From contig CM059429.1 of the NCBI GenBank assembly GCA_030390025.1, forward strand, positions 138,508,001-138,572,000: 64,000 nucleotides of DNA, written 5' to 3'. The position numbers were made by a program, and so were the translations under genes. How positions within the stretch are numbered: the stretch's first letter is position 1; every line of letters begins with the position of its first letter. Of this stretch, positions 17,571-63,779 are shown piece after piece. The notes under the pieces are model-generated. The model ran no database searches, had not been told where the DNA came from, and saw only the letters and a program-made list of their open reading frames with translations. Source of the stretch: Squalus acanthias. Taxonomy: Eukaryota.

Positions 17571-19750
17571 ACAACAACAACAACTTGTATTTTTTTGGCA
17601 CCTTTAACGTAGTAAAACGTCCCAAGGCGCTGCACAGGAGTATTTTAAGACAAAATATTTGACACCGAGCCACATAAGGAGAAATTAGGGCAGGTGACCA
17701 AAAGCTTGGTCAAAGAGGTAGGTTTTAAGGTGCATCTTAAAGGAGGAAAGAGAGGTAGTCACGTGGAGAGGTTTAGGCAGGGAATTCCAGAGCTTAGGGC
17801 CTAGGCAACAGAAGGCACGGCCACCAATGGTTGAGCGATTATAATCAGAGATGTTAAAGAGAGCAGAATTAGAGGAGTGCAGCTATCTCGGGGTGGTTGT
17901 GGGGCTGAAGGAGATTACAGAGATAGGGAGGGGTGAGTCCATTGAGGGATTTGAAAACAAGGATGAGAATTTTGAAATCGAGGCGCTGATTAACCGAGAA
18001 CCAATGTAGGTGAGTGAGCACAGGGGTGATGGGCGAACCAGACTTGGTGCGAGTTAGGACACGGGCAGTTGAGTTTTGGATGACCTCAAGTTTATGTAGG
18101 GTAGAATGTGGGAGGCCAGCCAAGAGTGCGTTGGAATAGTCAAGTCTAGAGGTAACAAAGGCATAGATGAGGGTTTCAGCAGCGGATGAGCTGAGGCAAG
18201 GGAGGAGATGGGTGATGTTATGGTGGTGGAAATAGGCGGTCTTTGTTATGCTGCGGATATGTGGTCAGAAGCTCATTTCAGGGTCAAATTTGACACCAAG
18301 GTTGCGAACAGTGCGGTTCAGCCTCAGACAGATGTTAGGGAGAGGGATGGAGTCAGTGGCTAGGGAACGGAGTTTGTGGTGGGGACCAAAAACAATGGCT
18401 TTGGTCTTCCCAATATTTAATTGGAGAACATTTTTGCTCATCCAGAACTGTATGTCGGACAAGTGGAGGGGTCAAGAGGAGAGGTAGTGAGGTAGAACTG
18501 GGTGTCGTCAGCGTACATGTGGAAACTGACGCTGTGCTTTTGGATGATGTCGCCAAGGGGGCAACATGTAGATGAGAAATAGGAGGGGGCCAAGGATAGA
18601 TCCTTGGGGGACACCAGAGGTAACGATGCAGGAGTAGGAAGAGAAGCCATTGCAGGTGATTCTCTGGCTACAAATAGATAGATAAGAATGGAACCAGGCG
18701 AGTGCAATCCCACCCAGCTGGACGACGGTGGAGAAGGATGGAGTGGTCAACAGTGTCAAAGGCTGCAGACAAGTCAAGAAGGACGAGGAGGGATAGTTTA
18801 CATTTGTCACAGTCACAAAGGATGTCATTTGTGACTTTGATGAGAGCCGTTTCGGTACTGTAGCAAGGGCGGAAACCTGCTTGGAGCGATTCAAACTTGG
18901 AATTGCGGGAAAGATGGGCACGGATTTGGGAGGCGACAACACGTTCAAGGACTTTGGAGAGGAAAGGGAGGTTGGAGATGGGGTGGTAGTTTGCAAAGAT
19001 GGAGGGATCAAGGGTTGATTTTTTGAGTAGAGGGGTGATGAAGGCAGATTTGAGGGAGAGGGGGACAGTACCTGAGGAGAGAGAACCGTTAACAACATCG
19101 GCTAACATGGGAGCCAGAAAAGGAAGTTGGGTGGTCAGCAGTTTGGTGGGAATAGGAGGGAGCAGGAGGTGGGTCTCATGGACAAGATGAGCACAGAGAG
19201 GTCATGAGGGGAGATCGGAGAGAAACTGGAGAAAGATGTGAGTTCAGGGCTAGGGCAGGGGGAAACCTTAGAGGAAGTTTGGCCTGGTGGGCTAGGGGAA
19301 GGAAGGGAAGTGGCAGAGGCAGAGGCAGCTGAACGGATGGTCTTAATCTTAGAGACAAAGAAGTCCATGAGCTCCTCACACTTGTTATCAGAGGTGAGGG
19401 TGGAGGAGACAGAAGAGAGGAGTTTAAGAAGATGGTTTGCAGTGAAGAATAGAAGCCGGGGTTTATCTTTGCATTCCTGAATGATTCTGGAATAGTGAGC
19501 AATTTTGGCAGATGAGAGCAGGACCTGATAATGCTTTATGTGGTCCAGCCAAATCTGGCGGTGAATGGCTAAACCAGTTGTCCGCCATATCTGTTCAAGT
19601 CTGCGTCCCTTGGACTTAAGGGAGTGAAGATGAGAGCCGCGACAGGAGGAACGGCCAGGATGAGAGGGTAGTTGTTTTAGTAGGGTCCAGGGCATCAAAG
19701 GTGGTGGTGAGGGTGTGGTCGAGCAGATCGGTAGCTGCAGAAATGTCATG
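17571..19750 (-). mobile_element. L2 LINE, 5'-truncated and frameshifted
   Basis: RT motifs LLDLSAAFDTVDH, GVPQGSILGPLLFLIY, HMYADDTQ; (GTT)n 3' tail; GTGAATG at both ends (17564-17570, 19751-19757). Confidence 0.9.
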
Positions 19751-33399: not shown

Positions 33400-33825
33400 C
33401 GCCCACGTTCCTGACCTACTGCCCCCCCCCCCCCCCCCCCAGTCCAAGTTCCTGACCTACTACCCCCCCCCCCCCAGCCCAAGTTCCTGACCTACTACCC
33501 CCCCCCCCCCAGCCCAAGTTCCTGACCTACTACCCCCCGCGCCCCCCCCCAGCCCAAGTTCCTGACCTACTACCCCCCCCCCCAGCCCAAGTTCCTGACC
33601 TACTGCCCCCCCCGCCCCCCCCAGCCCAAGTTCCTGACCTACTGCCCCCCCCCCAGCCCAAGTTCCTGACCTACTACCCCCCCCCAGCCCAAGTTCCTGA
33701 CCTACTACCCCCCCCCAGCCCAAGTTCCTGACCTACTACCCCCCCCAGCCCAAGTTCCTGACCTACTACCCCCCCCCCAGCCCAAGTTCCTGACCTACTA
33801 CCCCCCCAGCCCAAGTTCCTGACCC
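33400..33825. repeat. ~30-bp C-rich minisatellite (CCCAGCCCAAGTTCCTGACCTACTACCCCC)n
   Basis: Directly visible; long G-tracts on the minus strand. Confidence 0.95.
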
Positions 33826-34595
33826 CTCTCCCTCTCCGATTCCCCCTCTCTCTCCGATTCCACTCTTTCTCCCCCCCTCCGATTCCCTCTTCTCCCCCCT
33901 CTCCAATTCTCTCTCTCTCCAATTCCCTCTTCTCCCCCTCTCTCCAATTCTCCCCCTCCCTCCGATTCCCTCTCCCCTCCCTCCGATTCCCTCTCTCCTC
34001 TTCCTCTGATTCCCTCTTTCTCCCCCACTCTCTCCCTCTGATTCCCTCTCTCCCCCACTCTCTCCCCCTCTGATTCTCCCTCCGGATTCCCCCTCTCTCC
34101 CTCCCGGATTCCCCCTCCGATTCCTTCTCTCTTCCTCCGATTTCCCCCTCTGTCTCCCTCCGATTTCCCCCTCTGTCCCCTCTTTCTTCCTCCGATTCCT
34201 TCTCTCTCCCCCTCTCTCCCTCCGATTCCCCCCTCTCTCTCTCCCCCCTCTCCCTCCGGATTCCCCCTCCGATTCCTTCTCTCTTCCTCCGATTTCCCCT
34301 CTGTCCCCCTCTTTCTTCCTCCGATTCCTTCTCTCTCCCCCTCTCTCCCTCCGATTCCCCTCTCTCCCTCCGATTCCCCCCTCTCTCCCCCCTCTCCCTC
34401 CGATTCCTTCTCTCTCCCTCCGATTCCTTCTCTCTCCCCCCGATTCCCCCTCTCTCCCTCCGATTCCTTCTCTCTCCCCCACTCTCTCCCTCTGATTCCC
34501 TCTCTCTTCCTCCGATTTCCTCTCTCTCCCCCCTCTCTGATTCCTTCTCTCTCCCCCTCTCCGATTCCCTCTGATTCCTTCTCTCTCCCCCACCC
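33826..34595. repeat. Polypyrimidine low-complexity repeat (CCGATTCCCTCTCTC-like)
   Basis: Directly visible. Confidence 0.9.
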
Positions 34596-35368: not shown

Positions 35369-36575
35369 ATGGGTGCCGTTTGTACTGTCTCACCTTGGTC
35401 CTCAGAATCGGACCAGGATGAGCTCCAACACCAGCAGCAGCAACCGCAACAGCACCAACAACCTTCTCCTCAATGACCTGATGCTCCACAGGACAGAGGG
35501 TATCAGCACAGGGCTGCACCGCGCAGGAGGCGATATCCCCAATACAGGGTATACCGGCAGAGGATGAGCTTCCTCAACATGACTGAGCAGCAGTGCCAAA
35601 GGAGGCTCAGGCTATCGTGCCAGGTCATTGCAGGCATTTGCAGGTTGCTGGAACAAGACTTGCAGCCCAAAGGACCTGGTAGACGCACCTTACCAGTGGT
35701 TGACAAAGTCACCACCGCCCTCAACTCCTTTGCCTCGGGCTTCTTCCAGGGATCTGCAGCAGACATTTGTGGCATGTCGCAGTCGGCCGCCCACAGATGC
35801 TTCACCCAGGTCACCGATGCCATGTTTGACAAGTCAGCCAATTATATCAACTTTGCCACTGATGAAGCCAGAGTTACTGAGCGGGCGCTCGGCTTTGTGG
35901 CTCTGGCTGGCTTCCCACGGGTGCAGGGCGTCATCGACTGCACACGTGGCCATCAGGGCACCCCATCATCACCCAGGAGTGTTTGTAAACCGCAAGGGCT
36001 TCCACTCCGTCAATGTGCAGCTGGTCTGCAACCAAAGGTAGATTCTCATGCATGTGTGCGCCAGATTCCCTAGCAACTGTCTTGACTCTTTCGTCTTGCG
36101 CCAGGCCATCCTCCCTCAGCTCTTCACTCCACAAAATACACTTGCTGGCTGCTTGGAGATGAGGGCTATCCACTGAAGACGTGGCTCATGACACCCTTGA
36201 GGAGGCCAAGTACTGAGGCCGAGAATAAATATAATGAAAGCCACATGTCCACCCGATGTGTCATAGAGCAGACAATAGGCATGCTGAAAATGCGCTTCAG
36301 ATGCCTTGACAGATCTGGAGGAGCCCTTCAGTACACACCAGCCAGGGTCTCCAGAATCGTCGTTGTCTGCTGTGCGCTGCACAACATAGCGCAGCAGCGA
36401 GGATTAGCGCTGCATGAGGAGCAAGGCGCAGAGCGCACAGCCTCTTCGGAGGAGGAGAAAGAAGAGGAGCCTCAGCTGGAAGATGAGGAGGAGCAGGAGG
36501 AACCTGAGGTCCAGATGCCAGCAGCACCCGAGCACGTTGCTGCCGGGAGGCCAGGAATGGCCTCATTGTGGCCAG
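35369..36575 (+). pseudogene. Harbinger DDE transposase (HARBI1-like), with stop and frameshifts
   Basis: [48 protein letters not shown] and CCALHN motifs are split over frames. Confidence 0.9.
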
Positions 36576-36818
36576 ATTTACTTAAGTTCCTGCATTACAC
36601 CTATATGGCTGCCACATGCTGCGCCAGGTTCTCCACCCGTCCCCCCCGACCACAACAATACCATAAAGCATCCCTACAATGACCAAGCCATTCCTTTCAC
36701 ACTGACCCCCATTGCTGGAGGTAACGTTATGTCTCACCATTCACTGCAACTCACTAAACCACTTCTAAAGTAGGAGACATAAATGGGCATGACCTGAAAG
36801 TGGTGAAAATAAATAGTT

Positions 36819-44109: not shown

Positions 44110-47040
44110 TTTTTATTTGTTTATGGGATGTGGGCGTCACTGGAAAGGCCAGCATTTATTGCCCATCCCTAATTGCCCTTGAGAAGATGGTGGTGAACTG
44201 CCTTCTTGAACCGCTGCAGTCCGTGTGGTGAAGGTACTCCCACAGTGCAGTTAGGTAGGGAGTTCCAGGATTTTGACCCAGCGATGATAAAGGATCGGCG
44301 ATATATTTCCAAGTCAGGATGGTGTGTGGCTTGGAGGAGGTGTTGTTCCCATGCGCCTGCTGCCCTTGTTCCTTCTAGGTGGAAGAGGTCGCGGGTTTGG
44401 GAGGTGCTGCTGAAGAAGCCTTGGTGAGTTGCTGCAATGCATCTTGTAGATGGTACACACTGCAGCCACAGTACGCCGGTGGTGGAGGGGGTTCCAATCA
44501 AGCGGGCTGCTTTGTCCTGGATGGTGTTGAGCTTCTTGAGTGTTGTTGGAGCTGCACTCAACCACGCAAGTGGAGAGTATTCCATCACACTCCTTACTTG
44601 TGCCTTGTAGATGGTGGAAAGGCTTTGGGGAGTCAGGAGGTGAGACACTCGCCGCAGAATACCTAGCCTCTGACCTGCTCTTGCTGCCACAATATTTATG
44701 TGGCTGGTCCAGTTAAGTTTCTGGTCAATGGTGACCCCCCCAGGATGTTAATGATGGGGGATTCGGCGATGGTATTGCCGTTGAATGTCAAGGGGAGGTT
44801 GTTCGACACTCGCTTGTTGGAGATAGTCATTGCCCAGCACTTCTGTGGCGCAAATGTAACCTGCCACTTACCAGCCCAAGCCTGAACGTCGTCCAGGTCT
44901 TGTTGCATGTGGGCATAGACTGCTTCATTATCTGAGGAGTTGTGAATGGCGCTGAACACTGCAGTCATCAGCGAACTGCTATTTCTGATCTTCTGTTGGA
45001 AGGAAGGTCATTGATGAAGCAACTGAAGATGGTTGGGCCTAGACACTGCCCTGATGAACTCCTGCAGCGATGTCCTGGGGCTGTGATGATTGACCTTCAC
45101 CCACCACAACCATCTTCCTTTGTGCTATGTATGACTCCAGCCAGTGGAAAGTATTCCCCCTGATTCCCATTGACTTCAGTTTTACTAGGACTCCTTGATG
45201 CCATACCCGGTCAAATGCTGCCTTGATGTCAAGGGCAGTCTCTCTCACCTCACCTCTGGAATTCAGCTCCTCTGTCTATGTTTGGGACCAAGGCTGTAAT
45301 GAGGTCGGGAGCTAAGTGGTCTTGGCGGAACCCAAACTGGGCATCAGTGAGCAGGTTATTGGTGAGTAAGTGCCACTTGATAGCACTGTTGATGACACCT
45401 TCCATCACTTTGCTGATGATTGAGAGTAGACTGATGGGTCAGTAATTGGCCGGATTGGATTTGTCCTGGTTTTTGTGGACAGGACATACCTGGGCAGTTT
45501 TCCACATTGTTGGATAGATGTCAGTGTTGTAGCTGTACTGGAACAGCTTGGCTAGAGGTGCAGCTAGTTCTGGAGCACAAGTCTTCAGCACGATAGCCGG
45601 GATGTTGTCGGGGCCCATAGCCTTTGCTGTATCCAATGCGCTCAGCCGTTTCTTGATATCACGAGGAGTGAATCGAATTGGCTGAAGACTGGCTTCTGTG
45701 ATGGTGGGGACCTCAGGAGTAGGCCGATATGGATCATCCACTCGGCACTTCTGGCTGAAGATGGTTGCAAACGCTTCAGCCTTGTCTTTTGCACTCACGT
45801 GCTGAGCTCCACCATCATTGAGGATGGGGATATTCATGGAGCTTCCTCCGCCCGTTAGTTGTTTAATGGTCCACCACCATTCACGACTGGATGTGGCAGG
45901 ACTGCAGAGCTTTGATCTGATCCGTTGATTGTGGGATCGCTTAGCCATGTCTATAGCATGCTGCTTCTGCTTTTTAGCATGCAAGTAGCCCTGTGTTGCA
46001 GCTTCCCCAGGTTGGAACTTCATTTTTAGGTACGCCTGGTGCTGCTCCTGGCATGCTCTTCTACACTCCTTATTGAACCAGGGTTGGTCCCCTGGATTGA
46101 TGGTAATGTTAGAGTGAGGGATATGCCGGGCCATGAGGTTACAGATTGTGGTGGAATACAATTCTGCTGCTGCTGATGGCCCACAGCGCCTCATGGTTGC
46201 CCAGTTTTGAGCTGCTAGATCTGTTCTGAATCTATCCCATTTAGCACGGTGGTAGTTCCACACAACACGATGGAGAGTGTCCTCAGTGTGAAGACGGGAC
46301 TTCGTCTCCAAAATGACTCTGCAGTGGTCACTGCTACCAATACTGTCATGGACAGTTGCATCTGCGACAGGTAGATTGGTGAGGACGAGGTCAAGTAGGT
46401 TTTTCCCTTGTGTTGGTTCTCTCACCACCTGTTGCAGGCCCAGACTGGCAGCTATGTCCTTCAGGACTCGGCCAGCTCGGTCAGTTGTGGTGTTACCGAG
46501 CCACTCTTGGTGATGGATATCGAAGTTCCCCACCCGGAGTACATTCTGTGCCCTTGCTACCCTCAGTGCTTCTTCCAAGTGGTGTTCAACATGGAGGAGT
46601 ACTGATTCATCAGCTGAGGGAGGTAGGTGGTAATCAGCAGGAGGTTTCCTTGTCCATGCTTGACCTGAAGCCATGAGACTTCGTGGGGTCCGGAGTCAAT
46701 GTTGAGGACTCCCAGGGCCACTCCTTCCCGACCGTATACCACTGTTACGCCACCCCTGGTGGGTCTGTCCTGCCGGTGGGACAGGACATACCCGGGGATG
46801 GTGATGGAGGAGTTTGGGACATTGGCTGAAAGGTATGATTCTGTGAGTATGACTATGTCAGGCTGTTGCTTGACTAGTCTGTGGGACAGCTCTCCCAATT
46901 TTGGCACAAGTCCCCAGATGTTGGTGAGGAGGACTTTGCAGGGTCGACTGGGCTGGATGTGCCGTTGCTGTGTCCGTAGCCGGTGCTGAGTTCGATGCCG
47001 GGTGGTCCATTCGGTTTCATTGTGTAAGTAACTGTATCCA
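44110..47040 (-). mobile_element. CR1/L2-group LINE, nearly complete ORF2 (APE plus RT), frameshifted
   Basis: NIWGL..QPDIVILTESYL, LLDLVLTN, SSDH, KAMGPDNIP, ALDIKAAFDRVWH and YKAQVRSVMEY peptides; 3' tail GGGATGGGCAATAAATGCTGGCC. Confidence 0.88.
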
Positions 47041-49485: not shown

Positions 49486-51150
49486 ATACATACATAGATA
49501 CATACATAGAAGATAGGAGCAGGAGTAGGCCATCCGGCCCTTCGAGCCTGCTCCGCCATTTAATGAGATCATGGCTGATCCTCCAATTCAGTATCCCGTC
49601 CCCGCCTTCTCTCCGTAACCCTTAACCCCTTTTGCCTGTAGAAATATATCTAATTCCCTCTTAAATATATTTAATGAGCTGGCGTACACTGCCCTCTGTG
49701 GCAATGAGTTCCACAGGTTCACCACCCTCTGAGTGAAGAAATTCCCCCTCATTTCTGTCCTAAATGGTTTAGCCCTTATCCTTAAATTATGTCCTCTAGT
49801 TCTGTTCTCACCCGCCAAGGGAAACATTCCTTCTGCATCTAGTCTGTCTAGACCTGTCAGAATTTTATACACTTCTATGAGGTCCCCTCTCAATCTTCTA
49901 AACTCCAGTGTGTACATCCCTAAACTACATAGTCTCTCCTCATAGGTCAATCCCGCCATTCCTGGTATCAGCCTGGTGAATCGCCGCTGCACCCCCTCCA
50001 TGGCAAGAACATCTTTCCTCAGATGAGGCGACCAAAACTGTACACAGTACTCGAGCTGTGGTCTCACCAGTGCCCTGTACAGCTGCAGCAAGGTATCCCT
50101 GTTCCTGTATTCCAACCCTTTTGCTATGAAGGCCAGCATACCGTTTGCCTTCTTGATCGCCTGTTGCACCTGCATGCTCGCCTTCAGTGACTGGTGTACA
50201 AGAACACCCAGGTCTCTCTGTACTTCCCCCTCTCCCAATTTATTGCCATTTAAATAATAATTTGCCCTCCCGTTCCTGCACCCAAGGTGGATAACTTCGC
50301 ACTTGTCCACATTATAGTGCATCTGCCATTTATCCGCCCAATCACCCAGTCTGTCCAAATCGCTCTGGAGCTTCCTGGTCTCCTCCTCTGAGCCCACCCC
50401 TCCTCCTAGTTTAGTGTCGTCTGCAAATTTGGAAATGCTGCATCCGACTCCCTGATCCAGGTCATTAATGTAAATTGTGAACAGCTGGGGACCCAGGACA
50501 GATCCCTGTGGTACCCCACTTGTTACTGCCAGCCATTCAGAAAATGAGCCGTTTATTCCAACTCTCTGTTTTCTATCTGACAGCCAGTTCTCTATCCACG
50601 TCAATACTTTCCCCTTTATCCCATGAGCTTCAATTTTCCCTGCTAATCTTTTATGTGGGACCTTATCGAAGGCCTTTTGGAAGTCCAGGTACACCACATC
50701 TACTGGCTCTCCCCCATCTATTTTACCAGTTACTCCCTCAAAAAATTCCAATAGATTAGTCAAGCACGATTTACCCTTTGTAAATCCATGTTGACTCTGT
50801 CCTATCCTGTCCCCATTTGCTAAGTGCTCCGCTATTTCATCCTTAATGATGGACTCCAGCATTTTGCCCACAACTGATGTAAGGCTTACAGGTCTGTAAT
50901 TACCTGCTTTTTCCCTACCCCCCTTTTTGAATAGTGGGGTAACGTTAGCTACCCTCCAATCCATGGGCACTGTTCCCGAGTCTAATGAATTCTGAAAAAT
51001 CATACTTAGTGCATCCGCTATCTCTAGGGCCACCTCCTTCAGCACCCTAGGATGCATGTTATCAGGCCCTGGGGATTTGTCCGCCTTCAATCCCTTTAGC
51101 TTCCTTAACACCATATCCTTAGAGATATTGACTTGCGTCACCTTAGAGAT
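49486..51150 (-). mobile_element. Young 5'-truncated CR1 LINE with uninterrupted RT ORF
   Basis: About 515 codons without a stop (YLDFQKAFDKVPH, GVPQGSVLGP, KFADDTKL), (ATGT)n tail, CTGAG at both flanks. Confidence 0.93.
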
Positions 51151-52995
51151 CTGAGTCAACAGGCCACAAAGCCAGAGATTAACTTCTGCAGAACCTCTGT
51201 TCCCCATTGTCAGACTCCACTTTCACCTGTGACTTCTTCAATAATGTTGTGCTCTGCGCCTGACCCAGTGACAAACCCTCATCAGAACTATTTACATGAC
51301 ACAAAGATAGACGGCATTGTCGGCAGTGTTGATGAATGCATAAAATTACAAAGGGATATTGACAGATTAAGTGAATGGGCAAAACTGGAAAATGGATTTC
51401 AATGTGAGGTCATCCACTTTGGACCTTAAAAGGATAGAACAGGGTACTTTCTAAATGGTGAAAGGCTAAAAACAGTGGAGGTCCAAGGAGACTTGGGGGT
51501 CCAGGCACATAGATCATTAAAATGTCATGAACAGGTACAGAAAATAATCAAAAAGGCTAATGAAATGCTGGCCTTTATATTTAGAGGACTAGAATACAAA
51601 ATGGGTAGAAGTTATGCTGCAGCTATACAGGAAGTAACATACAGGGTGGATAAAGGGCAACCAGTGGATGTGGTGTATTTAGACTTCCAAAAGGCATTTG
51701 ACAAGGTGCCACACGAAAGATTATTGCTTAAGATAAAAAATCACGGGATTGGGGGTAATATTCTGGCATGGATAGAGGATTGGCTATCTAACAGAAGGCA
51801 GAGAGTTGGGATAAATGGTTCATTCTCAGACTGGCAATCAGTAACTAGTGGTGTTCTGCAGGGGTCAGTGCTGGGTCCCCAACTCTTTACAATCTATATT
51901 AACGATGTGGAGGAGGGGACCAAGTGTAACATATCAAAGTTTGCAGATGATACTAAGATGGAAGTAGTGAGTGAGGAGGACATAAAAAATCTGCAAGGGG
52001 ACATAGACAGGCTAAGTAAGTGGGCAGAGATTTGGTAGATGGAATACAATACTGGAAAGTGTGAGGTTATGCACTTTGGCAGGAAAAATAGTAGAGCAAG
52101 TTATTATCTTAATGGCAAGAAACTGGAAAGTACTGAAGTACAAAGGGATCTGGGGGTCCTGGTGCACGAAACTCAAAAGGTTAGTATGCAGGTGCAGCAA
52201 GTGATTAAGAAGGCCAATGGAATGTTGGCTTTCATTGCTAGGGGGATAGAATATAAAAATAGGGAGGTATTGCTTCAGTTGTACAAGGTATTGGTGAGAC
52301 TGCACCTGGAATACTGCATACAGTTTTGGTGTCCATACTTAAGAAAAGACATACTTGCTCTCGAGTCAGTACAAAGAAGGTTCACTCGGTTAATCCCGGG
52401 GATGAGGGGATGGACATATGAGGAGAGGTTGGGTAGATTGGGACTCTACTCATTGGAGTTCAGAAGAATGAGAGGCGATCTTATTGAAACATATAAGATT
52501 GTGAAGAGGTTGGATCGGGTGGATGCGGGGAGGATGTTCCCGATGATGGGTGATGAAGTAAGCCCCCAAAGTGCGGACCAAGTGATATACAAGGTTGACG
52601 CTACTGGCTTGTTGAAAGAAAGACAGACCAACTAATTGAAGTTACAACGGTTTATTCAGGCCTGGGGAGAGCTTCTCACGTCGCTGCGTAAGTCCAACTC
52701 CATCGAGCTAATCAAAGCACACATATTTATACAACATTTCTGCCTTACCCTTACGGAGATCCAATTAATTTTAAAAGTTACACATTTACTCATTATCCGA
52801 GGGTGGCGGTTTATACAAAGATAACACATAATTTACACACAAGTTGTGCTAGCCCATGATGTGGTTTCCAGAACTGTGCTAAGTTTTCTGTTAGTCTCGT
52901 TATAGGCCTGCTTCTGTTAATCTTGTTATAGGCCTGCTTCTGTTAATCTTGAGAAGTCGCACAACACCAGGTTATAGTCCAACAGATTTATTTAA

Positions 52996-53036
52996 AATTA
53001 CAAGCTTTCGGAGCTGTCGCCCCTTCGTCAGGCAAA
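52996..53036 (-). ncRNA. Minimal type I hammerhead ribozyme motif in the Penelope 3' pLTR
   Basis: UUGC-CUGACGA-A-GGGGC-GACA-GCUCC-GAAA-GCU-U-GUAA: conserved cores, stem II hairpin, palindromic AAGCUU stem III, stem I UUGC/GUAA. Confidence 0.8.
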
Positions 53037-55316
53037 GGTACAGTGAGTGAATCTACAACATTACACCGTATATAAACACAGACACTGCAGAGATACAATC
53101 TTTCAGGGAAGGTGTCCTTACATCAAAGACATACCAGAGCACAGACAAGACAATGAGATGTGTCACAGGGGGTCCAACGTGTCAAATCCTGCTGTCTGAA
53201 GTTGTTTTTTTTTTTTTTAAAAAGTGTTTTTTTTAATAAAAACTGGAAAGACAGACAACGATGTCGAGTCACATTCTGTAGCGTGACATGAACCCGATAT
53301 CCCTATTGAGGCCATCCTCATGGGTGCGGAACTTGGCTATCAGTTTCTGCTCGATGATTTTGCGTTGTCGTGTGTCTCGAAGGCCGCCTTGGAGAACGCT
53401 AACCCGCAGATCCGAGACTGAATGTTCTTGACTGCTGAAGTGTTCCCCGACTGGGAGGTAGCAATCCTGCCTGGCGATTGTTGCGTGGTGTCCACTCATA
53501 CGTTGTCTCAGTGTCTGCATGGTCTCGCCGATGTACCATGCTCTGGGGCATCCTTTCCTGCAACGTATCAGGTAGACAACGTTGGCCGAGCCACATGAGT
53601 ATGTACCATGTACCTGGTGGGTAGTGTCCTCACGTGAGATGACGGTATCTGTGTTCATGATCTGGCATGTCTTGCAGAGGTTGCCGTGGCAGGGTTGTGT
53701 GGTGTCGTGGTCGCTGTTCTCCTGACAGCTGGGTAATTTGCTGCGAATGATGGTACTTTTGAGGTTAGGCGGCTGCTTGAAGGCGAGTAGTGGAGGCGTG
53801 GGGATGGTCTTAGCAAGGTGTTCGTCGTCATCGATGACATGTTGAAGGCTGCGAAGAACATGGCATAGTTTCTCCGCTCCGGGGAAGTACTGGACGACGC
53901 AGGGTACTCTGTTGGTTGTGTCCCGTGTTCGCCTCCTGAGGAGGTCTATGAGGTTTTTCGCTGTGGCCCGTCGGAACTGTTGATCGACGAGTCGAGCGTC
54001 ATATCCCGTTCTTACGAGGGCGTCTTTCAGTGTCCGTAGGTGTCCATCGCGTTCCTCCTCGTCTGAGCAGATCCTGTGTATTCGCAGGGCTTGTCCATAG
54101 GGGATGGCTTCTTTAACGTGGTTAGGGTGGAAGCTGGAGAAGTGGAGCATCGTGAGGTTGTCCGTGGGCTTGCGGTAGAGTGAAGTGCTGAGGTGTCTGT
54201 CTTTGATGGAGATTCGTGTGTCCAAGAATGAAACCGATTCTGAGGAGTAATCCATGGTGAGTTTGATGGTGGGATGGAACCTGTTGATGTTATCGTGTAG
54301 TCCTTTCAGTGATCCTTCACCGTGGGTCCAAAGGAAGAAGATGTATCTGGTGTACAGCGTTGGTTGGAGGTCCTGTGCAGCGAAGAAGTCTTGCTCGAAC
54401 TTGTGCATGAAGATGTTGGCGTATTGGGGTGCGAATTTGGTCCCCATGGCTGTTCCGTGTGTTTGGGTAAAAAACTGGTTGTCGAAGGTGAAGACATTGT
54501 GGTCAAGGATGAAGCGGATGAGTTGTAGGATGGCGTCTGAGATTGGCTGTTGTTGGTGTTGAGTACTGAGGCTGTCGCAGCGATGCCATCATCATGGGGG
54601 ATATTGGTGTAGAGTGCCGATACGTCCATCGTGGCGAGGAGTGTTCCTGGTTCAACTGGTCCATGGGTGCTGAGTTTCTGCAAGAAGTCTGTAGTGTCGC
54701 GACAGAAGCTGGGGGTTCCCTGTATGATGGGTTTCAGGATGCCCTCGACGTACCCAGAGAGGTTCTCACACAGGGTTCCGTTGCCTGATACGATAGGACG
54801 TCCGGGTGTGTTGGCTTTGTGTATCTTTGGGAGGCAGTAAAAGTCTCCTACGGGGGGAGTACGTGGGATGAGAGCGCGTAGGATGTTTTGAAGGTCTGGA
54901 TCGAAGGTCTTGATCAGTCTATTGAGTTGGCGGGTGTGTTCTTTGGTCGGATCTGCGGGTAGCTGTCTGCAGTGTTCCTGGTTGTCCAGTTGTCGGTATG
55001 CTTCTTTGCAATAGTCCATTCTGTTCTGTATGACGATGGCTCCTCCTTTGTCCGCTGGTTTGATGACGATGTTGCGGTTGGTCTTGAGAGCGTGAATGGC
55101 ATTGCGTTGTGCTCGGGTGACATTCTGGACTGTCTTGTGCGTGCGGCTGATGAATCTGGCATTGATGCATTTCATGACAGCTTGAGCATACATGTCAAGC
55201 TTAGGGCAGCGACCCTCCGGAGGGGTCCAATTTGACTCTTTCTTCTTTGGTTGCTGCACTGCGGTTCCCTCTGTCTGCTGTTCCGGATCATTGATTGTCT
55301 CATTGGGTTTGTTTGG

Positions 55317-55354
55317 TGACCTGACGAAGGAGCAGCCGCTCCGAAAGCTTGTGA
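55317..55354 (+). ncRNA. Second hammerhead motif in the inverted pLTR copy
   Basis: AC-CUGACGA-A-GGAGC-AGCC-GCUCC-GAAA-GCU-U-GUGA; stem I is shortened by the inversion junction. Confidence 0.7.
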
Positions 55355-55546
55355 TTGCAAATAAAACTGTTGGACTATAACCTGGTGTTGTGCGACTTCT
55401 CACTTCTGTTAATCTTGTTATAGGCCTGCTTCTGTTAATCTTGTTATAGGCCTGCTTCTGTTAATCTCGTTATAGATCTGCTTCTCTGCAAATGAGTCAT
55501 GCCCGTCTTGCCCCTGTTAATTCCAATTTTTTAATATCTTACTTCA

Positions 55547-55558
55547 GTCCCCCCTTTT
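55547..55558 (-). other. ERV polypurine tract
   Basis: AAAAGGGGGGAC immediately before the 3' LTR on the minus strand. Confidence 0.9.
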
Positions 55559-56619
55559 GACCTATTGGACAACTGTTCCAATACAGGTCAACATGTATTC
55601 CTGTTGCCTGGAGTTTGCCCGAGCGTGCACTCTCTGGCCTTCTACCAGTCTAGGTTATAATTGGGTATGACATAAACCAATTTATGAGCCGGTTTCACCC
55701 CACGCGGTATATGTGGTCTTTTTTGTCTTTGTTCTTGTGTTGCCATTCCCGGGGCCCCAGAGCCCTGCATCAATGGTTTGAGCTTCTGGTTCGAGCTCGT
55801 CCTCCATCCCTCGGTGGGTGCGTGACGTGTCCTTTCGAGACTGTCATCACTCACCAATCCTGTTTCTGCCACTCCCGTCTTACGATTGGCCGGCCTGGTT
55901 ATTAATTACCGTGTCCAATTCATTCTTGTAATTTTAGGGCTATAGATCGGGTCTTACACCATTCTCATCAGAGTGGCTGAGGGATCTCCTGCGAGAAGCT
56001 CCTCATCCTCCTTTCTTAGTTTTAAGCATCCTTTCTATATTATGGAGTACGCCTAGGCCTATAAGGCCATATATAAGCAGATACTTGATCATCTTGTTCC
56101 TTGTTGTCGGCCGTCCCTTCTTCCGTTGTTCTTCTAATTTGTCCTGTGGAAATACAAGGCTGGTCGTCACCAGCAGTTAATTATTCCATTCTTACTACTT
56201 CTACTATCTCGGGCCTTGGGTTACCCCGTACCCGGATACACACTCCTTGATAGACGCATACAGAACCTACAATTATTCAAGCCATGCAGATACATCCAAT
56301 TAAAATAGTAGAATGCCTTCCACTTCCTCATCTTGTAACCTTTGTTTGTTAGCAGGCATTGGTTTCATTAAGTGTTCCGTTTTCTGTAATTTTTTAGAGT
56401 TGTGTGATTAGTTTATTTTAGCTCATCCTTATTGACTCAATCCTGTTCCAGTCTCTTCTCTCCTGGCCAGTTTCCCAGATCTATTGAAACATTCAGACCA
56501 CGAAGAATATTACTATCATAACGCGACAGGATCCTATTAACGCGAATACAAGGTCATCCGGCTCCTTTTGGACTTTATGCCAATAATCCTTGCTTTCCTT
56601 GTGCAATATGATTTCTGGG

Positions 56620-57800
56620 TTACTCATCGGGTTCTTTGTATAATTTTAATTGTGTCCAGTGTTTCCATCTTCCTTTTCCAGTGCCGTGCAGGTCTATACA
56701 CGCACAAGTGTCGCTGGTCATTAATACCAAATAGGGTCCTTCCCACCGGGGCTGTAACCCAGGTTTTATTGGAATAATTCTGGACATTACCTGACTTCCC
56801 ACCCCAGGTATAACTTTCTTTTGTTCCTCGGTATCCCTTTCCAGATCCTTGATTATCTGCTGGTCTCTAGCCTCCTGTCTCAGCCCGTGCAGTTCCGCAC
56901 ATAATTGCTTTATGAACCTTCTGATTCTGTCCTTTAAAGGTCCCACATCTTCCCCTCTGGTCACTACTCCTTCGGGAAGCGCCATTGCCCGTCCCGTCAT
57001 TAATTCAAAAGGGGTCAGTCCGGTGGTGCTATTTGGTGTGGCCCTTAGTCTCATTAGGATCGTGGGTAACAGTTCCGCCCATCCCTGCCCCGTCTCCACA
57101 ATTGCCTTTGTGAGAGATCGTTTTAAGGTCCGATTCATTCGTTCCACCATTCCTGAACTTTCGGGATGGTAAGGTATATGAAATTTCTGCCTTACACCCA
57201 ACAGGGCGCAAGCCTCTTTCATTACCTTTCCGGTAAAGTGTGTTCCATTATCTGAATCTATTTGTAATGGGACTCCCCACCGGGGTATTATTTCTTCTGC
57301 CAAGATCCGAGCCACGGTACTGGCGGTACAGTTTCGGGTGACGAAAGCTTCCACCCACCTTGTGAATTGGTCGATTATTACCAGACAGTAGGTTTTTCCT
57401 TTGCTTTTGGTTAATGGTCCGGCAAAGTCTATTTGAAGTTTCTCCCAGGGTCCCTTGGGTCTCGGCTGTCTACCACATTTTACCTTTACTGGTTTTCCGG
57501 TGTTACATTGCGCACAAATGTGGCAATCCTTACAATACTTCCTTACACTGCTTGATAGTCCGGGCCACCACCAGCATCGGCCTATGTTATTTATCATTCG
57601 GCTGGCCCCTGTATGGGCTTGTCCGTGATACAACCTCATTAGTTCCTGTTGGATACACTCGGGTGCACAGACCCGTCCCTCCTTTCTCCAGACCTTATCT
57701 CTGGATAGCATTACTCCCTTCTCTTCCCAAATTTTCAGCTCAGGTTCTGGTATGTCTCGATGTAATTTAACAATATTATACTCAAGGGGTATTAATGGGA
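56620..57800 (-). CDS. pol: ERV integrase (open)
   Basis: HHCC zinc finger (HGQAH..CHIC), LQIDFAG, IDSDNGTHF, SSGMVERMN, WEGPY. Confidence 0.93.
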
Positions 57801-57821
57801 CTGGGACTCCCCCTATCGGTT

Positions 57822-59000
57822 TTACACTGCCACGATGGGGGATCGTCTAGTGGAATAGTAGGCCACCGATCTCATGTTTCCTCCGTGCTCCTGGGCTACT
57901 ACGGTGCTATAGCGTTCGTCATGATTGTGACAGAATATGTGATAGGGTCTCTCTTGGTCAGGTAATCCTAATGCAGGGGCGGCGGTCAGGGCTTGTTTAA
58001 GTTTGGTAAATGCTTCTTCCTGAGTGGATGTCCACTCGATGGGTTCTTCTGCTGCCCTACCCACCTTTGTTAATTCATACAGGGGCGCGGCCATGTGTGA
58101 GAAGCCTTCTATAAAGTTCCGGCTAAAGTTAAAGAGACCGAGTACCTGACGTACTCCTCTCACGTTTATGGGTCTTGGCATTTGGCGGATTGCCTCCTTC
58201 CTTTCCTCTGGCATAGCCCTTTTTCCCATACTGACCCTATACCCCAGGTATATGACTTCCAATTTTCCTACCTGGGCTTTGGCTGGGTTTGCCTTAAAAC
58301 CCGCATCCCGTAGGGCTGAAAAGACCTTTGTCAGGGCCCCCTTGTGTCCCTCTTTCGTTTCTGACGCTATTAGGAGGTCATCCACGTATTGTAAGAGGGT
58401 ACTATTTTCACCCTCTAAGTCTAGGTCTTCAAGAGCTCTGGCCATGTGGCGGTGAAAAATGGCTGGACTGTTATGGAATCCTTGTGGGACCCGTGTCCAT
58501 GTATACTGTTTGCCGCCTATTGTAAAGGCAAATTTTTCTTGTGATTCCTCATGCAGGGGAATGGACCAGAATCCGTTTGCAATGTCTAACACGGTGAATA
58601 TTTTGTGTTCTGGTTTTAAACCGTTAAAGATAGTGGCTGGGCTTGCTACAATTGAATATTCCTTTGGGGTCACTTTATTTAAGGCTGTGTAATCGATTGT
58701 AAGTCGATATGACGCATCAGGTTTCTTTACTGGCCATACTGGAGAATTAGTGCCGGACACTGTTTCTTGCAAAATTCCTTGTTTAACTAGTTCCAATACT
58801 GTACTCCGTACGGCTGTCTGGGCCTCCATTTTTAGGGGATACTGTTTATGGGGTCGGTGGGTTGGCCCGGGGACTCTGACTGGGTTTATCTTGACCAGTC
58901 CGCAGTCCTGCTTGTGTTTGGCCCATAGTTCGGGGAATCGGTGGCAAATTTCCCCCCATCCTCCCGTTTCGTCCCATTTGGGGTCTATTATTCGGAGAGC
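57822..59000 (-). CDS. pol: ERV reverse transcriptase plus start of connection domain; RNase H missing
   Basis: NSPVWPVKKPD, LDIANGFWSIPL, WTRVPQGFHNSP, QYVDDLL, LTAAPALGLPD, VAYYS; only ~110 nt separate it from the integrase Met. Confidence 0.93.
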   Translation of the reverse strand, partial: ALRIIDPKWDETGGWGEICHRFPELWAKHKQDCGLVKINPVRVPGPTHRPHKQYPLKMEAQTAVRSTVLELVKQGILQETVSGTNSPVWPVKKPDASYRLTIDYTALNKVTPKEYSIVASPATIFNGLKPEHKIFTVLDIANGFWSIPLHEESQEKFAFTIGGKQYTWTRVPQGFHNSPAIFHRHMARALEDLDLEGENSTLLQYVDDLLIASETKEGHKGALTKVFSALRDAGFKANPAKAQVGKLEVIYLGYRVSMGKRAMPEERKEAIRQMPRPINVRGVRQVLGLFNFSRNFIEGFSHMAAPLYELTKVGRAAEEPIEWTSTQEEAFTKLKQALTAAPALGLPDQERPYHIFCHNHDERYSTVVAQEHGGNMRSVAYYSTRRSPIVAV

Positions 59001-59389
59001 GCTGTCTTGGATCCCTTTGATTTATGTCTCTCTTCCTTATGGTTATTGAGCCATAGCAACTTATCCTGCTTGGGGTCTATTAAAACTCCCACTTCCCGTA
59101 GTATGTCTATACCCAGGATGGTCCCCTCAGTATTTTCACAGATCCAGAAACATGTAGGTATAATGATTTTTCCTAATTCTGGTAATACTGTCTCACTTTT
59201 CCATGCTTTAATTTTTACTCCCCTTATCCCGGATATAAAAATATTTTTCTTGGTTCGTGGCAAGGGTACGTTTGTTAGAGATATTGCTGCCCCGGTGTCT
59301 ATGAGCATTCTGCACTGTCGGCCCCCTACCAGTGCCTCAATAAACATTCTAGGGTCTCCCTTTGCCGGGTCTCCGAGGGCCGCTACCTG
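58988..59389 (-). CDS. pro: ERV aspartic protease, in frame with gag after a TGA; frameshifted relative to RT
   Basis: LIDTGAAIS and ILGIDIL motifs. Confidence 0.9.
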   Translation of the reverse strand, partial: QVAALGDPAKGDPRMFIEALVGGRQCRMLIDTGAAISLTNVPLPRTKKNIFISGIRGVKIKAWKSETVLPELGKIIIPTCFWICENTEGTILGIDILREVGVLIDPKQDKLLWLNNHKEERHKSKGSKTALSE

Positions 59390-60937
59390 TCAGGCGTTGC
59401 CCTTTTTTATTTGTTTGACCAGTTTTTCCATTTTCCTTGTCAGCCCCACTATGTCTTCCTTGTCGGAGGTGTCTGAGGAATCGTCTCTCTTATACTTCCT
59501 ACTCTTTCTCCTCTTCCTTTCTTCTCTTTCCCTGTCATCCTCCCAGTCTTGCATTCCCTTCTTGATCAGTTTCGCCATGTTTTCCTCGTTATTCTCTGAC
59601 CTTCCAATACTTGACCCCGGTTTTCCTCCCTGTCTAGGTCCCTGACCTTCCCTTCCTCCTCCTTTATTCCAACATTGTTGTTTCCTATGCCCTGGTTTTC
59701 CACAGTTATGACAGGAAGCCTTTTGCTAAGATGTCTGATTACCCGCCTTGTTCTGTTGCCTCGGGCAATCCCTTTTCATGTGGCCCTCCTGTCCGCAACC
59801 GAAGCATGCCGCCACACTTAATGCATCTTCATTGTCGCTATCCGTCCTTAGAGCAGCTATTTTAGGTTTGGCTTGTTCTTGGGCCTGATTATCTACTTCG
59901 CACGCCCACTGTATTAAATCATCCCAATTATTGTGGACCACTAGCCCCATTTTTATTGCATTCTGGTGCACTGGACTTAGTCCCTGTTTAAATGTTTGCA
60001 GAAAACAAGCGTTGTTTTTGTTTAAGGGGCCTGGGATCCCACAGTTACCCTCAAAGGCGGACCACTTTCGTTTTCCATAATCGATGGCGCTTTCTCCCTT
60101 TTTTTGTGTGATTCCGCTTATAGCTGCCCAATTTACGGGGGCCTGTCCCATTGCTGCTTCCACAGCGGCCTTGAATTGGTCGAACTCAGTGTTTAATTGT
60201 TGGATTGTCTGTCCTGTATTTGCGGCCCACTGGCCATTTCCGTGGTTGCCCTGCACTAATCTCCACTGTTCCTCGGGACATTTAGCTCGTACCAATTGAT
60301 CGATGTCTATACTATGTAGGGCATGGTTTATGCGTACTTCGCGCAGTTTGTGCCAGAATGTCTGATTATTCTGGCGGTGTTTTACGGTTGGCAATTCGTT
60401 GAGGAGAATCACCCGATCCTGCAGGCTTAACGGTGTGTAAGTCATCATTGTGGTGGCTGGCCTGCCCAGTACTGCCGGAACAGCCGGATTTCCCCCCGCC
60501 ACGGGAACTGCCGGGACCGCGGGGATTGCCGGCCTATATTGCAGTGTCACTGGTGCCATCGGAACAGGCTCCGGGGCCACCGACTGGTGTCCTGAATACG
60601 GGGGAGGACAGCCGGTCGGCCCCCCCTGGGGCAGTTCCGGGTATACCTTTTCCCGGGAGTCACCCGGGTTTGGGGCGGTTGCAGCGACTGGATATGTCTT
60701 AAGGACTCCGCGCTGAAGCGTACATTCCCGATGGTAACGTGCCGCCACCATAATGTACGCTTTTTCCAATTTATTTTTGGTTTGGTTCATCCACCACTCC
60801 CTTTGTGTGTCTAGTTTATCGTCCCGGTTCCACCCTGCCTTCCTCATTTTCTCAATTAGTTTTTTATTCTTGTCATAAACATATCATGTTACAGACTCTG
60901 GGTCTCCCCAGGGTTCCTTATCCTCTTTACTAGTCAT
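59390..60937 (-). pseudogene. gag: ERV gag with two in-frame stops
   Basis: One frame from ATG 60937. Contains YPEL and PPPY motifs, two CCHC knuckles (CFGCGQEGHMKRDC, CHNCGKPGHRKQQC) and a charged C-terminal tail. Stops at ~60884-60886 and 59726-59728. Confidence 0.88.
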
Positions 60938-61506
60938 ATCCAAAGTTTTCGAGTACTCCTATACTTTTTTCAATATTTTATACACCCTTACTTGTCACGT
61001 GATCACGATCCTGTGGTGCTTTGTAGTCCCTACGCCTACTTGATCCTGGCCGTCACGTGGGACTACGTCCTCTTAATTCAGGCTCAGGCTAGGTGTTTGA
61101 GATAGGCACCACCCTTGTCCGAGTCGATCACTCCGTGATTCTCAGTTCAACTTTATACTTTATTGACACAACGGATCTCCTTATACTTTAAGCAGTCACG
61201 CGCTTAGTCTACTTTTCGGCCAGAAGGACTCGTCCTTCACCCAGTGTTAAAACAACCCGCTTAACTACTTCTTAAGAGCCGCACCTCGTGGGCCTACCGG
61301 GTTTCTAAACCCTTGTTTTCCGGTACCGCAGTCCGGCAGTTTTAACCGCCTTCAATTAAAGGTGTCTTTCTTTTTATAGTTCTTTTGTACATTGATCTTA
61401 CTTAACGTCTCGCCAGCGATTAACCTCTAATTTTACAGGTGGTAATTTTAAACGTACTCACCCGTCTTAGGTTATCGCTGTCCGAGAGTTTTTGTTCAGA
61501 TCGCGT

Positions 61507-61524
61507 ATCCCATCCTCGTCGCCA
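61507..61524 (-). other. ERV primer-binding site, tRNA-Ser(GCU)
   Basis: TGGCGACGAGGATGGGAT is the 18-nt complement of ATCCCATCCTCGTCG-CCA, the 3' end of vertebrate tRNA-Ser(GCU); it lies 2 nt from the 5' LTR. Confidence 0.9.
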
Positions 61525-61526
61525 AT

Positions 61527-62001
61527 TGAAGTAAGCCCCCAAAGTGCGGACCAAGTGATATACAAGGTCGACGCTACTGGCTTGTTGAAAGAAAGACAGA
61601 CCAAGTAATTGAAGTCACAACGGTTTATTCAGGCCTGGGGAGAGCTTCTCACGTCGCTGCATAAGTCCAACTCCACCGAGCTAATCAAAGCACACATATT
61701 TATACAACATTTCTGCCTTACCCTTACGGAGATCCAATTAATTTTAAAAGTTACACATTTACTCATTATCCGAGGGTGGCGGTTTATACAAAGATAACAC
61801 ATAATTTACGCACAAGTTGTGCTAGCCCATGATGTTGTTTCCAGAACTGTGCTAAGTTTTCTGTTAGTCTCGTTATAGGCCTGCTTCTGTTAATCTTGTT
61901 ATAGGCCTGCTTCTGTTAATCTCATTATAGATCTGCTTCTCTGCAAATGAGTCATGCCCGTCTTGCGCCTGTTATTTCCAATTTTTTAATATCTTACTTC
62001 A
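61527..62001 (-). repeat. ERV 5' LTR (475 bp) with 26-bp tandem repeats
   Basis: 9-bp terminal inverted repeat TGAAGTAAG/CTTACTTCA; AATAAA on the minus strand at ~61624-61629. Confidence 0.95.
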
Positions 62002-63779
62002 GGTGAAACTAGAACTAGGGGGCATAGTCTTAGAATAAGGGGCTGCTCTTTCAAAACTGAGATGAGAAGGAACTACTTCACTCAGAGGGTGGGAGGTCCA
62101 TGGAATATGCTGCCCCAAAAAGCTGTAGAAGCTACATCATTACATAAATTTAAAACAGAAATAGACAGTTTCCTAGAAGTAAAGGGAATTAAAGGTTATG
62201 GGGAGCGGGCAGGAATTTGGACATGAGTCTAGGTTCGGATTGGTCATGGCCCTGTGGGTAGCGTAGCGGGCCCTGGGGCCGTGTAGCCTGATCCTGCTCC
62301 TATTTCGTGTGTCCAATTCTGTTAGGTTCAGGAGATGGTTCTGTGATAGTAGATTGGCGGTTAGGATCAGATCAGCCATGATCTTATTGAATGGCGGAGC
62401 AGGCTCGAGGGGCCAATTGGCCTACTCCTGCTCCTATTTCTTATGTTCTTATACAACCCATGGAGTACTGTGAGCAGTTCAGGGCACCACACTTTAGGAA
62501 GGATATATTGGCCTTGGAGGGAGTGCAGTGTAGGTTTACCAGAATGATACCTGGACTTCAAGGGTTAAATTACGAGGAGAGATTACACAAACTAAGGTTG
62601 TATTCCCTAGAATTTAGAAGGTTAAGGGGTGATTTGATCGAAGTCTTCAAGATACTAAGGGGAACAGAAAAGGTAGATAGAGAGCAACTATTTCCACTGG
62701 TTGGGGATTCTAGGACTACGTGGCATAGTCTAAAAATTAGAGCCAGACCTTTCAGGAGTGAAATTAGGAAACACACAAAGGGTGGTAGAAGTTTGGAACT
62801 CTCTTCCGCAAATGGCAATTGATGCTAGATCGCCTGTTAATTTTAAAGCTGAGTTTGATAGCTTTTTGTTAACCAAACATATTAAGGGATATGGGGCAAC
62901 GGCGGTATATGGAGTTAGGCCGCAGATCAACCATGATCTCCTTGAATGGCGAAAGAGGCTCGAGGAGCTAAATGGCCTACTACTGTTCCTATGTTCCTAT
63001 GTTCTTCCTATTTAAATACCCCAGATGGATTTTTCTGGGCTGGCGAGTGAGAAAGAAAGAATTAAAGATGGCACAGGTGGGAATTGGGTTGGTCAGGAAT
63101 TTCCTCATCATCCTCTTTCAATTTCCTCATCATCTTCCTCTTTCTCCTCAGCAGCATCTTGCTATGACTCATCTAAGGGGGAAAATCAAATGGAAAGATT
63201 TTAATCATGTAGACTGGTTACTGGATGTCACAGCGCAATTTGAAGGAGGCTGATCAGGTGGCTTACATGTGTGCTAAGTGTGCACAAGCCACAATTATGG
63301 CAAGCTCTGGTGGTTCTGACAGTCCTGCAGCTCCTATTGAGACTCTATCTTGTCCCTTCCAACAGATTCTTCTGTCTGCCTCTGCTGAATCTGCTGAATC
63401 TGCAAGGCTTCCTCCTCTTGTGGCGGCAATGGTCCAATATTTGTGGGTCCTCCACCTGTAGCCTGTAACTCGGTATTGTTTTGGGAGACATTCTCTTGTG
63501 ATGAAGTGTAGAAGAGAATAGATAGGAGTTCAATATTGACAGCAGAGTAATGTCTCTTGTTCCAAAAGCACCACCCGTCAGCTTCTGACAGGGGCTGAGA
63601 CCTGCACAGTGTAAGTGATGGCATTTCAGGAGGCATGCTCATGTGTGCCACTTCTAGAGAGGGCTCATCTTATTCTTGCAATTATTCCAGGGTGGAGATA
63701 AGGATGGAAACGTAACATTTGAGCCTTATATCGCAGGGAGGTTCATTCCTGAGGAGCTCACAGTTTTCACAGGTTATGA

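Follow-up and report, generated by a model that had tools for sequence, protein, structure and literature searches.

The window analysed here, a 64,000-nucleotide stretch of the Squalus acanthias genome (GCA_030390025.1, contig CM059429.1, positions 138,508,001 to 138,572,000), contains on its minus strand a defective endogenous retrovirus (ERV) that lies in a long interspersed nuclear element (LINE) of this shark. With a probability of roughly 80%, we assign it to clade Huo, defined as related to snakehead retrovirus (SnRV) by Xu et al. 2018 (PMC6001957), and within it to a shark sub-lineage together with the whale-shark element Rh_ty_ERV4 published in the same paper. The element is likely an added member of a described SnRV-like group and not a new basal lineage; this group branches deep in the tree, and may lie nearest to SnRV, foamy or class I viruses.

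Affinity of the provirus to the SnRV group

The assignment draws on the following coding features:

59393..60937, minus: gag, 515 codons with two internal stops, beginning MTSK and without Gly-2
about 59809-59762 and 59713-59672, minus: the two CCHC knuckles of gag (two zf-CCHC stretches)
59390..59392, minus: gag stop TGA, the likely readthrough site, at a position equal to that of the SnRV TAG
58988..59389, minus: protease (DTGA; Pfam RVP, E 7.7e-07), in the same frame as gag and a different frame from reverse transcriptase
57827..59021, minus: reverse transcriptase (RT) and start of the tether; a deletion at about 57827 has removed RNase H and what is left of the tether
56620..57826, minus: integrase with HHCC, DDE core and C-terminal GPY, in an open frame (Pfam rve, Integrase_H2C2)

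The RT carries the motifs LDIANGFW, WTRVPQGFHNSP and YVDD (Pfam RVT_1, E 2.5e-36), and Gag falls into Atlas Gag_p30/p24 and CCHC clusters at 0.91. An initial annotation of this DNA had pointed out the RT motifs, the two knuckles in a Gag without N-terminal Gly, and the common frame of gag and pro across a TGA, all of which were recovered. Its classification of the RT as foamy-type found no support, as the motifs it had quoted lie nearer to those of SnRV. Among 54 viral loci scored against the RT, 51 gave a match, with SnRV on top at 258 bits vs 176–200 bits for 17 foamy-type loci; the remaining scores were 190–233 bits for 11 gamma-type loci, 199–217 bits for loci of the type of walleye dermal sarcoma virus and walleye epidermal hyperplasia virus (WDSV/WEHV), and 81–104 bits for 18 loci that we take to be beta- and delta-type. 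The RT of murine leukemia virus (MLV) reached 238 bits vs 118 bits for Ty3. Virus labels are by-eye matches to rows in the supplement of PMC7947760, where P0026 matches the SnRV row of the alignment; the 10,688-nt viral contig L001 is the SnRV genome.

Like the window element, SnRV (L001, P0026) has no Gly-2, the same knuckle tail and an in-frame gag stop followed by VAAL. Its Gag matches that of the window at the capsid end and knuckle (CW.KGGG.EG.GPRQ, E 5e-13), and the RT likeness amounts to 38% over 369 residues. The traits that had appeared odd in the initial annotation are those of the SnRV group.

By eye, the RT is placed nearest to Rh_ty_ERV4, with about 85 of 132 residues identical (~64%) when counted on the first 400 letters of the entries. 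The whale-shark element likewise features two CCHC knuckles with an identical tail and an in-frame TGA before pro at the same place, followed by the same codons (again by eye). In S2 Fig of PMC6001957, Rh_ty_ERV4 has ERVs of turtle, carp and eel as neighbours and is listed between the label for Huo and the foamy clade, as far as the order of the text tells. It is read as a member of Huo because of this label order and the turtle neighbours, the foamy clade of that paper being devoid of reptile members. Other relatives were matched by eye to Huo-listed ERVs: P0009, close to the window in our tree, equals An_an_ERV1, and the P0013/P0017 group resembles Si_an_ERV3, which stems from the same carp genus as Si_gr_ERV1 (PMC6001957).

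An RT search gave 273 matches among 3657 candidates. The top matches comprised an unnamed protein that clusters with Mustelus asterias (61%), Heterodontus francisci (55%) and Pimephales (53%); clusters linked to eel and herring came next. In the genomes of fish and frogs, many Pol proteins from this group of retroviruses (clusters P0005, P0127, P0190 and P0216) bear the host-gene annotation ‘protein NYNRIN-like’. Other searches were less informative. A fold search of BFVD ranked many RTs alike, the row of top identity being an unnamed one at 41%. No match was obtained with Gag among 2470 candidates of near length, none of 30 stretches was confirmed in a metagenome scan with P0125, and a single-protein scan of viral contigs returned 0 of 4. 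The plasmid search yielded just three distant matches; one of these, NZ_CP087956.1, is 5.3 kb long and deposited as a Wolbachia plasmid, yet codes for RT and RNase H resembling those of LTR retroelements and may be an insect retroelement in circular form. The accessible parts of PMC8227577, PMC10699275 and PMC10435555 do not describe the family of the window element.

For phylogeny, an alignment of 49 rows and 306 columns was hand-chosen from about 300 RT segments to span the groups; the foamy rows are mammalian only, and fish foamy-like ERVs (FLERVs), ERV-L/S, lenti-, alpha- and Odin elements are not among its rows. The window RT groups with Mustelus and Heterodontus at 100/98, joined by cyprinid and herring-cluster rows at 96/92. 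It lies outside the class I and II branch (98/98) and is not part of the gamma/epsilon (class I) clade, standing outside branches at 98/98 and 100/99. Two RTs, P0012 and P0334 (gar), matched to no named family, form a well-supported branch (98/98) sister to class I and II. In part, the proposal of a basal lineage in the initial annotation held: the element is a true retrovirus that branches deep in the tree, outside classes I and II and outside Gypsy, and its relatives include shark ERVs. That the lineage is undescribed is not supported, because Rh_ty_ERV4, a shark ERV described earlier (Xu et al. 2018), has the same architecture; this is largely the outcome that the initial annotation had named as speaking against its proposal.

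Several results weigh against the assignment. Free trees do not unite the window group and SnRV, which counts against a strict SnRV clade; with foamy rows included, SnRV falls outside a 35-row set comprising the window group, foamy viruses and class I/II (96/80), and with foamy rows excluded it falls outside a 30-row set (95/97). Monophyly of SnRV with the window group is not rejected (p 0.20, 0.25 and 0.135), and the same is true of foamy viruses as sister to the whole window group (approximately unbiased (AU) test, p 0.33). The integrase tree, albeit poorly resolved with 14 of 45 branches starred, puts SnRV with betaretroviruses, and the window integrase is only 33% identical to that of SnRV. 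SnRV has one knuckle where the window has two, and it has another primer site. The identity to Rh_ty_ERV4 was a by-eye count. Lastly, the 2018 clade Huo included elements later named loki (PMC7947760), and Huo may therefore not be a natural group.

These data also feed a different reading, in which the shark, cyprinid and eel group would form a separate deep lineage whose sister is the foamy viruses or class I/II and not SnRV, so that ‘SnRV-like’ would denote a grade keeping ancestral traits. The polytomy with foamy viruses and class I/II that leaves out SnRV, the distance between the integrases and a best tree that joins the group with foamy viruses (at 55/46) speak in its favor. Support is low, however, no test rejects SnRV monophyly, and SnRV has in common with the group both the tail of the Gag knuckle and the junction of gag and pro, down to 10 identical nucleotides. 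We consider this reading unlikely, though worth keeping in view, and even if it were true its members were already published in 2018.

A foamy-like ERV akin to the CmiFLERVs of elephant shark is far less probable. Shark FLERVs do exist (PMC5512871), the NGFW and YVDD motifs of RT are held in common, and among solved structures the integrase of prototype foamy virus (PFV) is the best match to that of the window, at 137 bits. Grouping of the window alone with mammalian foamy viruses was rejected, however (AU, p 0.004; FLERV sequences being absent from the trees). Fish FLERVs lack Cys-His boxes and show a GGGTG junction between polypurine tract and long terminal repeat (LTR), and foamy duplications measure 4 nt (PMC5210030), whereas the window element has two knuckles, no GGGTG junction and a 5-bp duplication. 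CCHC was found in 0 of the 17 foamy-type loci. The architecture thus goes most of the way to refuting a foamy-like ERV.

A lokiretrovirus or a Ty3/Gypsy retrotransposon is the least credible of the readings. The former had been suggested by the initial annotation; the window has no env, and NGFW is present in loki RT rows. In the RT tree, the two loki rows, labelled by motif match to the supplement of PMC7947760, are sister to all remaining retroviruses (100/98) and the window lies outside them. The AU test rejects a grouping with loki (p 0.0065) as well as with Gypsy (p 0.012). Loki RT rows read NRCPFGY.NSP, and.YVDDIL after GNLI, and six chondrichthyan genomes in the survey of PMC7947760 carry no loki mark, if we interpret this mark correctly. 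A tether and second RNase H in the relatives, together with the scores for MLV and Ty3 given above, also argue against this reading, which is refuted at the level of these tests. The element extends neither loki nor foamy viruses to sharks.

A candidate helix at the gag/pro junction

SnRV is a readthrough virus (Jern et al., PMC1224870) that reads through UAG, and the swim bladder sarcoma virus of salmon (SSSV), zebrafish ERV (ZFERV) and a toad ERV use UGA (PMC13517186). Ten identical nucleotides follow the gag stop in SnRV and the window. The post-stop region of each opens exactly one helix of at least 7 bp, at offsets 12–76 in SnRV and 11–74 in the window, and matching arms were found by eye in Rh_ty_ERV4. 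In the window it comprises:

59319..59382, minus: predicted 8-bp long-range helix, opening 8 nt past the gag stop, with arms 59382-59375 and 59326-59319

At other in-frame positions, such a helix occurred in 12/1368, 6/369 and 6/378 cases. Four-fold codons of conserved residues are identical between SnRV and the window in just 27 of 97 cases. Other observations speak against the helix: the folding energy of the junction is unremarkable (z 0.11 and -0.43; SnRV -1.57), the offsets were picked after SnRV and the window had been seen, the 5' arm codes for conserved residues, and the sole differing pair changed on one side. In the literature, PMC3835772 reports that the SnRV stop is not followed by a pseudoknot. 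A 2026 review (PMC13517186) describes SnRV by its stop context alone and, for readthrough in epsilonretroviruses, regards the cis-elements as unclear. No earlier account of a post-stop helix in SnRV was met in a literature search restricted to accessible text, which leaves subscription papers, the original SnRV paper included, outside its scope.

The helix of 7–8 bp that the window, SnRV and Rh_ty_ERV4 have some 8 nt past the stop of gag is a candidate readthrough signal. We tentatively put forward a wider proposal, at somewhat less than even odds: SnRV and shark ERVs would share an undescribed, conserved readthrough helix, which opens ~8 nt past the stop of gag and closes 55–65 nt downstream, across UAG and UGA viruses that are ~40% alike in RT, and the shark, cyprinid and eel group would be a genus-level lineage near the orthoretrovirus root that keeps this ancestral mode of Pol expression. 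As a candidate common to SnRV and shark fossils, the helix is directly testable.

Integration, age and decay of the copy

The boundaries and non-coding features of the provirus are:

62001-52554, minus: provirus, with TGAAG...CTTCA ends exactly at 52554 and 62001
52549..52553: target-site duplication GGTGA, left, in a CR1-like LINE open reading frame (ORF)
62002..62006: target-site duplication GGTGA, right
61527..62001, minus: 5' LTR, 475 nt, with three 26-nt units in U3
61507..61524, minus: primer-binding site, tRNA-Ser(GCU), 17/18 match
61456..61461, minus: splice-donor-like GTGAGT in the leader, predicted from sequence
55559..56619, minus: post-pol region, with two short hydrophobic stretches near 56555 and 56285
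55548..55558, minus: polypurine tract
55404..55546, minus: 3' LTR, upstream piece (U3 start) with extra 26-nt units, 3/117 differences vs 5' LTR
52950..55403, minus: Penelope-like retroelement, 2454 nt, with 83-nt inverted ends and a 12-bp duplication, within the 26-nt array of the 3' LTR
52554..52949, minus: 3' LTR, downstream piece (R/U5 side), 7/396 differences vs 5' LTR

GGTGA is present on both flanks, in agreement with the 5-bp duplication proposed in the initial annotation, and the frame of the host CR1-like LINE ORF resumes on the far side of the provirus; both indicate a true integration. Of the 18 bases of the primer site, 17 agree with the 3' end of tRNA-Ser-GCT-1-1, as anticipated, and the other three Ser tRNAs shown in PMC10359600 do not match by eye.

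The 3' LTR has two more 26-nt units than the 5' LTR and is interrupted by the 2454-nt insert, which is presumably a Penelope-like element, judged by its motifs. It falls into Atlas GIY-YIG/HTH clusters at 0.96, and a Pfam search of 52950..55403 gave no match. As its position shows, it entered the 3' LTR after integration of the provirus. The two LTRs differ at 10 positions per 475 nt (Kimura two-parameter distance 0.020), 38 positions falling in both aligned pieces (396 + 117). This bears out the ~2% divergence of the initial annotation, although not the ‘relatively recent’ insertion deduced from it. With the rate that Han 2015 (PMC4422223) took for sharks, the divergence corresponds to 45 million years (My; 21–81), at 1e-9 to 10 My, and at a mammalian rate to ~4.5 My. 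At the shark substitution rate, 2% may thus mean tens of millions of years, and because the age depends on the rate a recent insertion is not established.

Two internal stops in gag, the frameshift between pro and RT, and the lack of RNase H and env leave this copy unable to replicate alone. Residues 486–764 (~280 codons) of the Pol of the close relative P0125, which cover the whole RNase H and the greater part of the tether, have no counterpart in the window, while the closest relatives, P0125 and P0194, keep the tether and second RNase H. In the 1.07 kb behind pol, no env ORF and no Pfam family was found in any of three frames (stops read as X). A possible env start, treated likewise, was homologous to 0 of 32 candidates, a search of the region with PF00523 (paramyxovirus F) remained without match, and in tblastx no match to SnRV or 10 other viral loci fell below E 0.2. 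The region 55559..56619 likely represents remains of accessory ORFs and a deleted env.

Contigs of other provenance point to fuller copies. Part of the stretch is present in 20 runs from at least six coded organisms and eight studies, one run comprising half or more of the words and none being listed as RNA, and contigs from four related runs span 28–30 of 30 bins. One related contig shows 608 unlike letters at the RNase H break, another a 140-letter loose end at 56064, and several have other internal deletions. Contig X12, with 30 letters on one side of the RNase H deletion point where the rule asks for 31, was not counted as sharing the deletion. The longer sequence in related contigs argues that the family has longer copies and that the window copy is a deletion derivative; since other copies diverge at 56064, env was likely lost from this one.

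The ancestor likely worked as an orthoretrovirus with a two-knuckle Gag. Transcription would have been driven by the LTR and primed for reverse transcription by tRNA-Ser(GCU), Gag-Pro-Pol would have arisen by readthrough of the gag stop, possibly aided by the downstream helix, and env would have been expressed from a spliced RNA, as is known of the family. The internal deletions might even be older than the integration, in which case a helper would have mobilized the copy; this suggestion is a weak one.

Elsewhere in the window, a Harbinger/IS5-type DDE transposase remnant is found at 35477-36679 on the plus strand (Pfam DDE_Tnp_4, E 8e-20). LINE endonuclease and RT fragments lie at 660-2096, 18671-19201, 45442-46695 and 49591-51222, and at least nine segments of the window are CR1-like. 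This LINE-rich context and the nearest relatives of the provirus agree with a shark host. At positions 1-433, 6219-7185 and 33430-34572 there are minisatellites, whose arrays have units of 19, 27 and 35 nt, together with an array rich in C/T. No tRNA genes were found in the window.

Comparison with known systems

Apart from the knuckle number and primer site, SnRV differs from the window element in its UAG stop, a coiled-coil in Gag, a long insertion before a divergent integrase, and intact env and accessory ORFs. SnRV further has a short hydrophobic leader exon (L001, 180-226) ahead of a splice donor upstream of gag; the window leader has a donor-like site and no such ORF. In sharks, an SnRV-related ERV lineage was reported from elephant shark by Han 2015 (PMC4422223). 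This CmiERV lineage I shows 3% LTR divergence and a primer site other than that of the window. Lokiretroviruses (Wang and Han, PMC7947760) resemble the element in their deep retroviral position and its relatives in the tether and RNase H, and differ from the element in RT motifs, gag and pol layout and an F-like env.

Closest in kind are the shark relatives. The proteins of Mustelus asterias (XP_078069418.1) and Heterodontus francisci (XP_067870587.1), annotated just as uncharacterized, show 55–64% likeness in RT, 65% in integrase (between the window and the cluster mate P0125) and 31% in a Gag with two knuckles; unlike the window, the Mustelus cluster retains tether and RNase H. Rh_ty_ERV4, for all its likeness, is a separate virus at species level. 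With this locus, a known group of retroviruses that has been thinly sampled gains one shark family, in a copy whose LTRs, primer site and duplication are still readable.

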